Shown in pieces: positions 1-4,755 of a DNA stretch of 4,755 nt (position 1 is the first letter of the stretch; each line of letters opens with the position of its first letter). Location of the stretch: IMG/VR virus record IMGVR_UViG_2671180411_000012. The stretch is one strand, 5' to 3'. The stretch is from a virus (lineage: Duplodnaviria; Heunggongvirae; Uroviricota; Caudoviricetes). The position numbers and the translations under genes are program-made. Below the pieces are notes generated by a model. It searched no databases. It saw only the letters and a list, made by a program, of their open reading frames with translations, and was not told the DNA's origin.

Positions 1-119
1 GTCCGGGCATGAAGATACCCCGCGCTCAGCGTGGACTGATGTTCAGACGCCCATGCAGGCGCACCGGATACGGCCAGACAAATGGCTGCGGACAAAATGG
101 CGGCACAAACTTTACGCAT
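1..119 (-). CDS. lom: Lom-family outer membrane protein (Ail/Lom/OmpX family), N-terminal 39 codons only; the gene runs off the window at position 1
   Basis: Minus-strand ATG at 119-117 is preceded by GAGAGG 5 nt upstream. Translation is MRKVCAAILSAAICLAVSGAPAWASEHQSTLSAGYLHAR..., a typical Sec signal peptide with an A-W-A cleavage motif. It is near-identical to the N-terminus of phage lambda Lom as I recall it (MRKLYAAILSAAICLAVSGAPAWASEHQSTLSAGYLHA...). Position immediately downstream of J matches lambda gene order. Not in the ORF track because it has no stop inside the window. Confidence 0.85.
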   Translation of the reverse strand, partial: MRKVCAAILSAAICLAVSGAPAWASEHQSTLSAGYLHAR

Positions 120-124
120 AATTA

Positions 125-130
125 CCTCTC
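125..130 (-). promoter_or_regulatory. Shine-Dalgarno / ribosome-binding site for lom
   Basis: Minus-strand GAGAGG (plus-strand cctctc at 125-130), with a 5-nt spacer before the lom ATG at 119-117. Confidence 0.6.
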
Positions 131-140
131 GCTTTTCTGC

Positions 141-167
141 AATAAAAAAGGCGTCATTCCTGACGCC
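141..167 (-). terminator. Rho-independent (intrinsic) terminator between J and lom
   Basis: Perfect 7-bp inverted repeat ggcgtca (150-156) / tgacgcc (161-167) around a 4-nt loop. On the minus-strand RNA this is GGCGUCA-GGAA-UGACGCC (GNRA tetraloop) followed directly by UUUUUUAUU (plus-strand 149-141). It lies about 22 nt downstream of the J stop codon. An A-tract upstream makes it potentially bidirectional, but the U-tract is best on the minus strand. Confidence 0.65.
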
Positions 168-189
168 ATTTATTGGGGTTATAAATATT

Positions 190-1958
190 TCAACGAATAC
201 TGATGCCGGAAGCCGCTTTTTTGGTCACAATCACCGTACAGTCGGTGATATTGCCTGCCCCCTGATTGCCTTTCTGGAAAATCTTAAACTCCAGAGTGAC
301 GCTACCACCACCACTAGGCATATCAATAACTGCACTGTAACTACCGGGAATGGCACCTTTAGTTTCTCTGGATGCGATTAATACGCCGTTTTTGCGAACT
401 TCAAAACCATAACCCGTGTATCGCGTGCCTCCTGGGTTATTTCCGCTCCCCGGATCGTCATACGCTATACCGTTAAAAATAATGGGCGGAATAATAATCT
501 GGCGGTCAAAGTTATGATCATCGCTTATGGTGACTGTAACCGTCCCGTTTGGTGTTTCCGTGTTACCCCACGTACCAGCCTGTTTCGGAAATGATTTGGA
601 TACAGCTTTAACGAAGTCACCTCTGACCTGAGTCGCCTCCAGCATGCCCTTAATCGTACAGTTTTCATTTACCGTGACATTGTTGAGCGTCCCGGCGTTC
701 GCATTCACACTGCCACTGATATCCGCATTTTTAGCGGTCAGCTTTCCGTCCGGAGTCAGGGAAAATGCCGATGGATTTCCACCGCTGGTAATGGTGGGGG
801 CCGTCAGGCGTTTCAGGAACACGTCGTTCATGAATATCTGATCGCCCTGACCAACAAACATCGGTTTTGTGTTGCCATTCGCAGGATTAACCATCGCAAT
901 CCTGTCCGCCGCCAGCAGCACCTGACTCTGCATGCCGTCAGGGGTGTTCTCAATACCGGCACCAATACCCGCGATATAAAGGCGTCCGTCCTGCATCTGC
1001 TGCAGCTTCACAGCCCACATGCTGTTCAGGTTATTATTTGTATCAACCTGAACCTTCTGTATCTGCTGAATTGCCGCACTCTGGTCTTCCAGTTTCTTAT
1101 TGACGGTCTGCGTGATTTCATTGCTGACATCCGTAATGGACGTCCTGATTTCAGCCAGGTCAGGCGCAAGCTGACCGTTATCAATCTGCGTCCACAGCTC
1201 CTGAGCCAGATGGGTTTTCCCTATCTCGCCTTTGAAAAAATCCAGATAACCGGATGCATCATCACTCGGCTGACCAACAGCCTCCACGAATGCCGATTTG
1301 CCAACGGTGTTCACACTGCGGATATAAAAGTAATAATCATGGCCCGGTTTGATATTGATACTGGCGGCTATCCAGTACAGCGCCGTGCCAAGATAGCGTG
1401 CTGTGGTTTCAACCTGCCTGATATCCGCAATCCGCTTTTCCGAGAACCAGAACTCAAACTGTACCGTCGGATCATAAACCGCAAGATGCGGCGTGGCGGT
1501 TATCTGAAAATAGCCCGGCGTCAGCTCAATCCGCGACAGCGCTGCCGGTGCGGCAATCCGGAACGATACCGACGCCGGATCGCCCTGCTGCCCCCACGCA
1601 TTTACTGCCCGGACTGTCAGCCTGTAGTTCCCCAGCGCCAGTTGTGTGAAGCGGTAAGTGGTTTCCGTCGTCCGGGCCGTGCTGACCAGCCGCTCACTGC
1701 CGTCATCCGCTGTTACGGTCAGACGGAGCAGGAAGCTCACGCCCTTCACCACCTTCGGCGTGTCCCAGCGCGCCAGCACCTGATATTCCCCGCTGTCTGC
1801 GGTGACTTCGGCAGTCAGGTGCTGCACCGCTGGCGGCGTGACACCATTCACCGTGCCGCTCTGGTCGCCGTCAAAGTGCGCCCCGTTATCCACGATGGCT
1901 TCTTTTTCCGGCACATGCTGCACGGCGGTGATGGCATACGTGCCGTCGTCGTTCTCAC
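190..1958 (-). CDS. J: Host specificity protein J (tail tip / central tail fibre), C-terminal segment: second FN3-like module to the stop codon (TGA at 192-190)
   Basis: This is the low-coordinate part of the 970-aa minus-strand ORF (190..3102). It reads [30 protein letters not shown]...[30 protein letters not shown]...[55 protein letters not shown]...[10 protein letters not shown]. Long blocks match my recollection of phage lambda gpJ (e.g. [43 protein letters not shown]). The last ~170 residues are diverged from lambda. Bounded upstream by the N-run at 1959. Confidence 0.93.
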
Positions 1959-2576
1959 NNNNNNNNNNNNNNNNNNNNNNNNNNNNNNNNNNNNNNNNNN
2001 NNNNNNNNNNNNNNNNNNNNNNNNNNNNNNNNNNNNNNNNNNNNNNNNNNNNNNNNNNNNNNNNNNNNNNNNNNNNNNNNNNNNNNNNNNNNNNNNNNNN
2101 NNNNNNNNNNNNNNNNNNNNNNNNNNNNNNNNNNNNNNNNNNNNNNNNNNNNNNNNNNNNNNNNNNNNNNNNNNNNNNNNNNNNNNNNNNNNNNNNNNNN
2201 NNNNNNNNNNNCCAGGCATTTACCGCCCGGACTGTCAGCGTGTACCGTCCCAGCGCCAGTTGCGTGAAGCGGTATGTGGTTTCCGTCGTCCGGGCCGTGC
2301 TGACCAGCCGCTCACTGCCGTCATCCGCTGCCACGGTCAGGCGAAGCATAAAGCTCACCCCCTTCACCACCTTCGGCGTGTCCCAGCGCGCCAGCACCTG
2401 ATATTCCCCGCTGTCTGCGGTGACTTCGGCAGTCAGGTGCTGCACCGCTGGCGGCGTGACACCATTCACCGTGCCGCTCTGGTCGCCGTCAAAGTGCGCC
2501 CCGTTATCCACGATGGCTTCTTTTTCCGGTACATGCTGCACGGCAGTGATGGCATACGTGCCGTCATCGTTCTCAC
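1594..2576. repeat. Direct repeat pair of a 365-bp FN3-like domain module of J (copy 1 at 2212-2576, copy 2 at 1594-1958), separated by the N-run
   Basis: Manual alignment gives 18 mismatches in 365 nt (about 95% identity), offset exactly 618 nt. There is a 170-nt perfectly identical core (1742-1911 vs 2360-2529); mismatches cluster at the NAW-proximal end plus 3 near the ENDDG end. Most changes are synonymous; protein differences are M/L, A/T and RYT/NYR. Confidence 0.9.
1959..2211. other. N-run (253 nt): assembly gap or masked sequence inside J
   Basis: Uninterrupted n characters. Flanked on both sides by the ~95% identical 365-bp FN3-like module; the copy-to-copy period is 618 nt, which keeps the reading frame. 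Confidence 0.95.
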
Positions 2577-2749
2577 GGATACTCACACAGCGGAACAGGC
2601 GCTGGCGCAACGTCGGCAGCTTCAGCCCCCACACGCTGTATTCAGCAACGCCGTCAGGAACACGGCTCACTTTCACCTTCACGCCGTCGGTGACGGACTG
2701 AACCTCCACGCTGACCGGATTGCCACTTCCGTCAACCAGGCTTATCAGC
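2212..2749 (-). CDS. J: Host specificity protein J, internal segment (LISLVDGSGNPVSVEVQ... through the first FN3-like module ending ...[12 protein letters not shown])
   Basis: Same reading frame as 190..1958 (codon phase is preserved across the 253-nt N-run). Translation [68 protein letters not shown]...[14 protein letters not shown] matches the central region of lambda gpJ as recalled. Bounded by N-runs on both sides. Confidence 0.9.
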
Positions 2750-3026
2750 NNNNNNNNNNNNNNNNNNNNNNNNNNNNNNNNNNNNNNNNNNNNNNNNNNN
2801 NNNNNNNNNNNNNNNNNNNNNNNNNNNNNNNNNNNNNNNNNNNNNNNNNNNNNNNNNNNNNNNNNNNNNNNNNNNNNNNNNNNNNNNNNNNNNNNNNNNN
2901 NNNNNNNNNNNNNNNNNNNNNNNNNNNNNNNNNNNNNNNNNNNNNNNNNNNNNNNNNNNNNNNNNNNNNNNNNNNNNNNNNNNNNNNNNNNNNNNNNNNN
3001 NNNNNNNNNNNNNNNNNNNNNNNNNN
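2750..3026. other. N-run (277 nt): assembly gap or masked sequence inside J
   Basis: Uninterrupted n characters. The J frame differs by 1 nt between flanks, and the run is much longer than the ~22 residues that separate ...GGRVLA from LISLVDG... in lambda gpJ as recalled. This points to an estimated-size scaffold gap, not exact masked sequence. Confidence 0.95.
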
Positions 3027-4291
3027 ACCGCCAGCACGCGCCCGCCGATGCTGATACCCGCATAGTCATCATCACAGATTTCAATGACATCGCCCGGCAC
3101 ATGGCGAAGCCCTTCTGCGCCCACGCTGAAGTCCACGGTCTGCGTTTCCAGCAGTTCTGTTTTAATCAGCCACAGCCCGGCGCGGTGTGCCTGCCCCCGG
3201 CTGGTACAGCCAAAGGCATCCATCTTCGTGACGTTACGACCGTAACGGACAATGGCCTGCGTATCCTCCACAAGCTCTGTCGCCGTCTCCCAGCCGTTAT
3301 CCGGGTCAATCCAGTTCACCTCAACGGCATTATGGCGGTCTTTCAGGGCGCTGAAACTGTAGCGGAACGGCGCGCCATCATCCGGCATCACCACATTACT
3401 GCGGTTATAGGCCCACACCTTATCCGACTGTCGGTCCTGCACGAACGTCAGCGTCTGCCCGTTCCATACCGGCATACAGCGCATCGCCGAGCAGAAATCA
3501 CTGAGCACATCCCACGCCTTGCGCTGTGTGGTCAGCCAGGCATTACAGGTGATGCGCGGCTCCGTGCTGCCAAAGCCGTCCGGCACCGACTGGTCACAGT
3601 ACTGGCCGATGACATACAGCGCCCATTTATCCACATCTGCCGCACCAAGACGTTTCCCCATGCCATAGCGCGGATGGGTCAGCATATCCCACAGACACCA
3701 GGCCATGTTGTTGCTGTATGCCGGTTTTAACGTTCCGTCCCAGATACCGCTGTATTGCCGCGTCTGCGGATTATAGTTCGACGGCACCTGCAGAATGCGC
3801 CCGCGAAGATGATAATTACGGCTCACCTGCTGGCTGCCGAACTGTTCCGAGTCCACCTGCACACCGACCAGTGCCGTGTTCGGGTAGCACTGTTTCACAT
3901 CGATGATTTCGGTGTATGACGACCAGAGCGTTTTGTTCTGCAGCTGGTCTGTGGTGCTGTCCGGCGTCATTCTGCGCATCCGGATATTAAACGGGCGCGG
4001 CGGCAGGTTATCCACCACCACCGAGGCCAGATACTGCGAGGTGGTTTCCACCAGTGCCTGTACACCGAAGGTAAAACGCAGTCGGTCAATGTTTGCCGAC
4101 GTGATGGTCCGGGTGATCGGCGTGTCATATTTCACTTCCGTACCCAGCACCGTCTCGGAGCCGGAGGATTCAAACCCCTCCGGCGGTGTCTGCTCCTGCT
4201 CACCTGCCCGGAACACCACCGTGACACCGGAGATATTGGTATTCCCCTCACTGTCCAGCACCGGCGTACTGTTCAGCAGCACGCTTTTTAA
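3027..4291 (-). CDS. J: Host specificity protein J, N-proximal/central segment (LKSVLLNSTPVLDSEGNTNISG... to ...EICDDDYAGISIGGRVLA)
   Basis: Minus-strand frame of the 516-aa ORF (2732..4282); its apparent start is an internal GTG (V of LKSVLLNS), not the true start. Near-identical to my recollection of lambda gpJ from roughly residue 50 onward (LKSVLLNSTPVLDTEGNTNISGVTVVFRAGEQEQTPPEGFESSGSETVLGTEVKYDTPITRTITSANIDRLRFTFGVQALVETTS...), except for an in-frame absence of ~35 residues after ...ALVETTS. The frame is offset by 1 relative to the 190..2749 segments, so the 277-nt N-run does not preserve phase. The ADKPG tail of this ORF and the MCRAMSLK... head of the 970-aa ORF are wrong-frame read-through artefacts. 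Confidence 0.9.
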
Positions 4292-4541
4292 NNNNNNNNN
4301 NNNNNNNNNNNNNNNNNNNNNNNNNNNNNNNNNNNNNNNNNNNNNNNNNNNNNNNNNNNNNNNNNNNNNNNNNNNNNNNNNNNNNNNNNNNNNNNNNNNN
4401 NNNNNNNNNNNNNNNNNNNNNNNNNNNNNNNNNNNNNNNNNNNNNNNNNNNNNNNNNNNNNNNNNNNNNNNNNNNNNNNNNNNNNNNNNNNNNNNNNNNN
4501 NNNNNNNNNNNNNNNNNNNNNNNNNNNNNNNNNNNNNNNNN
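4292..4541. other. N-run (250 nt): assembly gap or masked sequence between two overlapping J N-proximal segments
   Basis: Uninterrupted n characters. The flanks carry overlapping, not consecutive, J protein sequence. Confidence 0.95.
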
Positions 4542-4755
4542 CTTTTTCCGTCACCCAGCCACCGTTACGCTGTATCTGAACCAGCAGGCGAACTTCAGAC
4601 GGATTCCTGTCTCCCTTTGAGGTGGTTTCCACCAGTGCCTGTACACCGAAGGTAAAACGCAGTCGGTCAATGTTTGCCGACGTGATGGTCCGGGTGATCG
4701 GCGTGTCATATTTCACTTCCGTACCCAGCACCGTCTCGGAGCCGGAGGATTCAAA
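4542..4755 (-). CDS. J: Host specificity protein J, separate N-proximal fragment (FESSGSETVLGTEVKYD...ALVETTSKGDRNPSEVRLLVQIQRNGGWVTEK); overlaps in protein content with segment 3027..4291 and runs off the window end
   Basis: Minus-strand frame of the 147-aa ORF (4288..4731). Its upper 137 bp are nucleotide-identical to 4038-4174. It then continues with KGDRNPSEVRLLVQIQRNGGWVTEK, which is present in lambda gpJ as recalled but absent from the 3027..4291 copy. It is therefore a second, more lambda-like J allele fragment or an overlapping contig end. Confidence 0.8.

Follow-up and report, generated by a model that had tools for sequence, protein, structure and literature searches.

The number of Ig-like/FN3 domains varies among phage fibers generally, and a J gene of a tailed phage that appears to carry the same domain module twice, in frame, raises the question of whether its tail fiber has gained a domain or whether the second copy was created during assembly. 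The gene lies in a 4,755-nt stretch of DNA, referred to here as the window, from the IMG/VR record IMGVR_UViG_2671180411_000012 (Caudoviricetes). Were the duplication real, the central tail fiber would contain ~206 extra residues and would be about one to two Ig-like/FNIII domains longer, and the distance from the hub to the receptor-binding domain would be changed.

Three runs of N divide the window into four sequenced pieces, A to D (Table 1), and the window as a whole reads as a scaffold of four contigs derived from a lambda-like J gene on the minus strand, followed by lom. The minus strand is the coding strand, and its long frame, with X at the N positions, encodes a lambda-type tail-tip attachment protein J, as indicated by its J-specific Pfam domains and its position upstream of lom in the tail-gene cluster. 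In Escherichia coli MB56, a finished genome used throughout as the main reference (L001), the neighbors of J are a tail assembly protein, a C40 peptidase, the minor tail protein L, and the tape measure protein. The translation of the lom start (MRKVCAAILSAAICLAVSGAPAWASEHQSTLSAGYLHAR) matches the Lom protein of MB56, and finished genomes annotate Ail/Lom over the region matching this end of the window. The hairpin found by the consensus scan between the two genes has a 7-bp stem with 5 G-C pairs and the minus-strand tail TTTTTTATTG; in phage Ayreon, an annotated terminator lies under the match to this region. According to the Pfam architecture of the reference J, the unique part of contig A encodes the second Ig-like/FNIII-2 domain, the helical shaft, the fiber, and the C-terminal receptor-binding domain. 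The locus resembles that of lambda in the order of genes, J and then lom, and in the module DNA, which is 96.4% identical to that of lambda. However, the best matches of the window are phages and prophages of the ev099 and cdtI types rather than lambda itself, and we take the C-terminal receptor-binding region of the window J to differ from the LamB-binding domain of lambda.

Table 1. Features of the 4,755-nt window and, for mapped segments, the corresponding positions in E. coli MB56 (L001)
Feature	Window position	Strand	Position in L001	Remarks
lom 5' end (Ail/Lom outer-membrane protein)	1..119	-		Start codon 119-117; runs off the window
Piece A (contig A)	1..1958		3001-4952	Window 6-1958, 98.0% identity
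Terminator-like hairpin, then T run, between J stop and lom start	150..167	-		Consensus scan
Contig A, unique part	190..1593	-		J 3' portion, stop codon at end
Copy 1, end of contig A	1594..1958	-	4588-4952	ev099/MB56-type allele; J codons 578-698 (linker and Ig_J/FNIII-1)
N run 1, scaffold gap	1959..2211	.		253 N; reference-implied distance -365 nt (overlap)
Piece B (contig B)	2212..2749		4588-5125	
Copy 2, end of contig B	2212..2576	-	4588-4952	EC2-type allele; J codons 578-698
Contig B, unique part	2577..2749	-		J codons upstream of the module (...LISLVDGSGNPVSVEV...LFRCVSIR)
N run 2	2750..3026	.		277 N; 63 nt in references
Piece C (contig C)	3027..4291	-	5189-6209 (window 3027-4047) and 6305-6558 (window 4038-4291)	J hub-domain part (Phage-tail_3 and FNIII-A regions)
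N run 3	4292..4541	.		250 N; reference-implied distance -331 nt (overlap)
Piece D (contig D)	4542..4755	-	6228-6441	J fragment re-covering reference positions of contig C

The two copies are 365 nt long, begin 618 nt apart, and differ by 19 mismatches (94.8% identity), a similarity far beyond chance. The differences gather towards the edges, and the longest identical run spans 170 nt (1742-1911). An initial annotation, made from the letters of the window, had described the module in much the same terms, as present twice at ~95% identity with a 170-nt identical core and divergent edges, and only the size it gave, 123 residues, needs adjustment: the module protein (...TVRAVNAW, minus strand) comprises 121 full codons. 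Almost all of the changes were said to be synonymous, as is indeed the case for 13 of the 17 codons that differ between the copies, the other four being non-synonymous (L/M, T/A, N/R, and R/T).

The same annotation reported an in-frame period of 618 nt with ~83 intervening codons and made no mention of the N runs. The spacing was recovered by measurement, but all of the 253 bases between the copies (1959-2211) are N; the last base of copy 1 adjoins this run, and the first base of copy 2 comes directly after it. The 618-nt spacing is therefore the sum of 365 nt and the N count set by the scaffolder, and the ~83 codons have never been observed. A genuine tandem duplication would be recognized from continuous sequence leading from one copy through the junction into the other, and here 253 nt of the putative 618-nt unit consist of N.

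Nor is the sequenced part of the repeat a clean domain unit. The 121-aa module consists of a linker and positions 1-87 of the 104-position Ig_J domain (Pfam PF24421, E = 1.9e-34), and any remainder of a unit would fall in the Ns. The domain series of the reference J in Pfam is FNIII-A_GpJ, Phage-tail_3, Ig_J, Ig_J_second, Phage_Tail_Tip, and Ig_GpJ_C. In tail-tip structures, lambda gpJ possesses exactly two successive FNIII domains, FNIII-1 and FNIII-2 (PMC11101478), and the repeated segment corresponds to the linker and most of the first of these, FNIII-1.

J-lom regions matching the window occur in 254 phage records and in 4,670 of the finished E. coli genomes (5,426 in all). Window 6-4755 (4,750 nt) corresponds to only ~3,558 nt in the best-matching of these finished genomes and phages. 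The pieces were placed by piecewise blastn on MB56, where the J coding sequence occupies 3184-6681 and encodes 1,165 aa (Table 1), and phage ev099 (L002) yielded the same piecewise coordinates. All breaks of colinearity between contigs fall at the N runs, for which the reference implies distances of -365, +63, and -331 nt as against the 253, 277, and 250 N present in the scaffold; thus, two of the three N runs are overlaps. Both copies map to a single interval of the reference, L001 4588-4952, within a J protein that contains the module once (aa 578-698), and the flanks are colinear after collapse, as is characteristic of false duplications. When the copies are collapsed by removal of 618 nt and the second gap is set to 63 nt, one open frame of 1,089 codons followed by the J stop is obtained. 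Taken at 277 N, the second run produces an apparent frameshift in J, and 63 nt in its place restores the frame. Given that the two N runs other than the one between the copies are non-colinear and break the frame at face value, the lengths of the N runs in this scaffold demonstrably cannot be relied upon.

The third N run is accompanied by another repeat, in which the last 137 nt of contig D (4619-4755) are 100% identical to 4038-4174; judged by its placement on the reference, this repeat appears to be a second false duplication. Compared to all references, contig C also has an internal in-frame deletion of 105 nt at ~4038-4047. The contiguous deletion junction was not found in finished E. coli genomes, and an exact 46-mer across it had no match in IMG/VR, GTDB representative genomes, or JGI metagenomes.

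Comparison with individual genomes assigned the two copies to different alleles. The J genes of the finished genomes EC2, SW071611/19/3, and NCTC9082 match piece B, with copy 2 in it, at 100% identity along 538 nt, and copy 2 is also 100% identical in three N-free IMG/VR contigs (L004, L005, and L011). Copy 1 differs from phage ev099 at a single position and from MB56 at four (98.9% identity to L001 4588-4952). At all 19 differing sites, the EC2-type records carry the copy-2 base, and ev099 and MB56 carry the copy-1 base at 18 of the 19. Hence the copies are distinct alleles that already existed, another mark of a false duplication.

The sequences that continue beyond each allele elsewhere cross over to the flank of the other copy in the window. 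Leftwards of the copy-2 allele in EC2, at the place of the Ns in the window, are 253 nt that align ungapped and at 94.9% identity with window 1341-1593, the stretch after copy 1. For the copy-1 allele, the next 173 nt in MB56 and ev099 match window 2577-2749, located before copy 2, at 98.8% identity. The IMG/VR draft L007 is 100% identical to window 1668-1958 and runs into sequence of the 2577-2749 type without an N. In all three of these records (L001, L002, and L007), the copy-1 allele continues rightwards into the CVSIR-side sequence and not into a second module. In its home genome, each allele thus appears to be accompanied by exactly one module, and the mosaic of identity and divergence between the copies would represent population-level allelic variation between two haplotypes, each in circulation as a single-copy J gene, rather than divergence after duplication. 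A gene-conversion tract, which the initial annotation had invoked together with two paralogous alleles, was considered for the 170-nt identical core and set aside as unneeded: the 19 differences between the copies are those of two standing haplotypes and are already present between single-copy J alleles elsewhere.

The number of modules per gene was then surveyed among relatives. The module was detected in 255 phage records at 260 places, and these records fit a single module in each J gene; among the matches listed (60 rows), three phage records with two places are 89-94 kb in size, which is the size of two prophages, not one. Lambda, as stated in the initial annotation, as well as 434, DE3, and ev099, has the module at one place per record, and one module each is present in three finished E. 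coli J genes that were aligned (MB56, ev099, and EC2) and in the three N-free IMG/VR contigs. No double-module architecture was seen in finished relatives, namely, the 255 phage records and the J genes of MB56, ev099, and EC2. Finished E. coli genomes were screened for the module by the best place per record; the number of J-like places per E. coli genome has a median of 2-3 and reaches 14.

A phmmer search with the module against 1.84 billion representative proteins, clustered at 50% identity so that true double-module cases could be hidden, returned a single close match with two stretches, P0001 (431 aa). Apart from P0001 and the fragment P0052, the close J-like matches (at least 41% identity) consist of a single stretch, and the matches with many stretches do not exceed 37% identity and have the appearance of unrelated proteins with multiple FN3 domains. 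The source of P0001 is the 2,783-nt contig CASDMC010000056.1 (L013) of the assembly GCA_949281435.1, and its period is 211 aa, not 206. This contig is a chain of six J fragments, whose joins are marked by single Ns in three cases and carry no N in the other two, and P0001 was accordingly rejected as a natural double-Ig_J protein, being encoded on a jumbled six-fragment draft contig. The search of clusters at 90% identity returned only short fragments, with no doubled score among 195 candidates, and bears on such fragments rather than on full-length proteins. These clusters, with up to ~1,950 members, comprise "partial J" proteins encoded on contigs of 350-600 nt; the existence of such large clusters indicates that the J region routinely breaks short-read assemblies.

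The unreliable N lengths, the two standing alleles, the single-copy state of the relatives examined, and the restoration of the frame by collapse together lead us to conclude that the duplicated domain is very probably a false duplication flanking an assembly gap, formed by overlapping contig ends that carry different J alleles, and that the module most likely occurs only once in the real gene or genes. In essence, this is the reading that the initial annotation had favored, with overlapping contig ends from different J paralogues, and the placement of both copies, as two alleles, on the same reference interval bears it out. The exact abutment of the copies on the N run was discarded as proof of an artifact: a true 618-nt repeat whose middle is unsequenced should look no different in this respect.

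We propose the following sequence of events. The window would be a scaffold in which the J gene (tail-tip attachment protein, central fiber) of a lambda-like prophage was assembled in fragments, probably from short reads. At least two diverged J alleles would have been present in the sample, most likely contributed by two lambdoid prophages in one E. coli genome, and their differences at ~5% of sites would have kept the short contigs from being merged. The scaffolder would then have chained the contigs with N runs of guessed length, such that the end of contig A and the start of contig B, which represent the same 365-nt J segment in different alleles, came to face each other across 253 N and took on the look of an in-frame tandem duplication. 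We infer this behavior of the assembler and the scaffolder, as well as the origin of the alleles in two prophages rather than two strains. We further assume that the scaffolder misbehaved in giving a positive 253-nt gap to ends that truly overlap, which is plausible in a multi-copy region.

Comparable scaffolds are present among other drafts. In IMG/VR, a 53-mer specific to copy 2 was found in nine stretches on seven contigs, which provided allele references and additional cases of the artifact. In the isolate-draft scaffolds L003 and L006-L009 from the same collection, the reference coordinates jump back by ~0.3-1.9 kb at 10 of the 12 single Ns. The IMG/VR UViGs 2700989365_000006, 2700989368_000009, and 2693429679_000007, together with CASDMC010000056.1, likewise consist of several J fragments of different alleles joined end to end. 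These chained drafts are similar to the window in that the coordinates jump back at most joins and some of them carry the same two alleles; they differ from it in having single Ns or no N at the joins and overlaps of other lengths.

Alternatively, the two alleles could stem from contamination or from a mixed or metagenomic sample containing two strains or phages. This would be a sub-case of the same artifact, and we consider it improbable. Pieces A and B do find their best matches in different genomes (MB56 or Z247 vs EC2), and the window was not traced to an isolate genome, which would fit a mixture. However, E. coli genomes usually contain several prophages with a J gene, so that one genome is enough to supply both alleles, and two isolate-derived IMG/VR scaffolds, L007 and L009, each contain both alleles. 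A single genome with two prophages is favored as the source of the alleles.

A genuine in-frame duplication, the other possibility that the initial annotation had raised, is very unlikely. Here, unequal (illegitimate) recombination of two J alleles would have generated a chimeric J in which an EC2-type module precedes an ev099-type module by ~206 codons, and the 253 N would stand for an unsequenced stretch of the correct length. The spacing of 618 nt is a multiple of 3, and the minus-strand frame is open through both copies; the length of the first N run keeps the frame, for which the chance is 1 in 3. Recombination between alleles could place two standing haplotypes in tandem, and the geometry alone is compatible with a real 618-nt repeat of which the middle was left unsequenced. 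Against this, no sequence joins the copies, and the other two N runs are non-colinear with the references (+63 vs 277 and -331 vs 250) and break the frame at face value. The absence of a double module from the 255 phage records and the J genes of MB56, ev099, and EC2 likewise speaks against a duplication, as does the derivation of the only close double-module protein among the 1.84 billion representatives from a jumbled contig, and the sequenced copy 2 stops at position 87 of the 104 positions of Ig_J.

Least credible of all is that the N runs are masks over real contiguous sequence, and the window is a J pseudogene with tandem duplications of 618 and 581 nt, a 214-nt insertion, and the 105-nt deletion: some stretches of a public collection are masked as N, and the three runs are similar in length (250-277), but this reading needs three independent rearrangements with breakpoints exactly under the masks, outside of which only the 105-nt deletion is seen, and it includes 581-nt and 214-nt events that destroy the frame, yet all the sequenced pieces are intact open frames and 96-100% identical to functional J genes, and scaffold gaps explain the same facts without extra events.

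The false duplication in the window has a counterpart in a recognized class of assembly errors. In vertebrate assemblies, false heterotype duplications place diverged versions of a sequence in tandem, and a gap between the pair is a primary diagnostic (Ko et al. 2022, Genome Biol 23:205, PMC9516828), with read depth and k-mer multiplicity as further diagnostics. The window has such an assembly gap between the copies, with no sequence for the junction, and in all shows three of the diagnostics of the class. As in the vertebrate cases, diverged versions that lie in tandem across a gap give the appearance of a gene or domain gain. In vertebrates, these versions correspond to the two haplotypes of a diploid; those in the window most likely represent paralogous J alleles from two prophages, the bacterium being haploid, and by this analogy the artifact can be regarded as a bacterial, paralogue-driven counterpart of false heterotype duplications.

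Artifacts of this type are already present in public protein collections, where the 431-aa "double Ig_J" P0001 stands as a cluster representative. Repeats whose copies abut an N run should be treated as overlap until a spanning read says otherwise. The gene underlying the window is an ordinary, already well-known lambda-like J, of the kind present in most E. coli genomes, and the domain "gains" that draft scaffolds suggest in phage tail fibers can be artifacts of assembling multiple prophages.

Repeat comparison within the window revealed a second repeat, of 137 nt and 100% identical, with one copy on each side of the third N run (window 4038-4174 and 4619-4755) and the second copy reaching the window end. 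The short terminal piece of the scaffold (piece D, 4542-4755) aligns to positions 6228-6441 of the reference stretch L001 of finished E. coli MB56, positions that are already covered by, or internal to, the preceding piece C (3027-4291). This repeat is a second false duplication in the window.

Piece C additionally carries, at window ~4038-4047, an in-frame 105-nt (35-codon) deletion relative to all references, with loss of the J residues that lie after ...VETTS and before QYLAS.... The deletion sits where two alignments of piece C overlap by roughly 10 nt, and the undeleted version of the segment is present in piece D. No contiguous match to the deletion junction turned up among 5,426 finished genomes of E. 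coli or in IMG/VR, the GTDB representatives, and the JGI metagenomes. Either this allele carries a private deletion, or the junction is a misjoin.

The second N run (window 2750-3026) consists of 277 nt, compared to 63 nt at the same place in the references, and J is listed as two ORFs in the window (190..3102 and 2732..4282); the apparent frameshift that splits the gene results from the count of Ns in this run alone. The C-terminal, receptor-binding end of J (window 190-~1000, minus strand) groups with the ev099 phage, cdtI, and MB56 type at 96-98% DNA identity, compared to only about 93% identity to the finished E. coli genome EC2 in the same region, and window 865-1190 has no megablast match in EC2. 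A terminator-like hairpin (see the table) separates the stop codon of J (190) from the start of lom (119), and phage Ayreon has an annotated terminator at the equivalent place.

Coordinates and source records of the intergenic hairpin and of J-derived sequences in public databases
Feature	Record or position	Strand	Sequence
Terminator-like hairpin	window 150-167	minus	GGCGTCA-GGAA-TGACGCC then TTTTTT
P0001 on contig L013	CASDMC010000056.1 (NCBI GCA_949281435.1) 1131-2426		
IMG/VR UViGs behind L003, L006, L007, L008, and L009	2700989365_000006, 2700989368_000009, 2693429679_000007		

The artefact behind the false duplications also recurs in public records. P0001, a predicted protein of 431 aa that contains two Ig_J modules and serves as a cluster representative, is the product of a contig built of six shuffled J fragments. 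A 170-aa partial protein encoded by a 528-nt contig (P0030), annotated as a 'phage holin family protein', combines Ig_J (PF24421) with a domain of phage holins (PF05106); a further short contig of chimeric origin, or an annotation error, is the probable cause. In the IMG/VR ‘viral genomes’ L003 and L006-L009, derived from isolate drafts, J fragments of several alleles are chained via single Ns, and the chain in L006 also holds fragments of other tail genes. P0001 exemplifies the spread of the J-fragment artefact into protein databases, and the chained scaffolds would raise gene counts along with the apparent repeat content.
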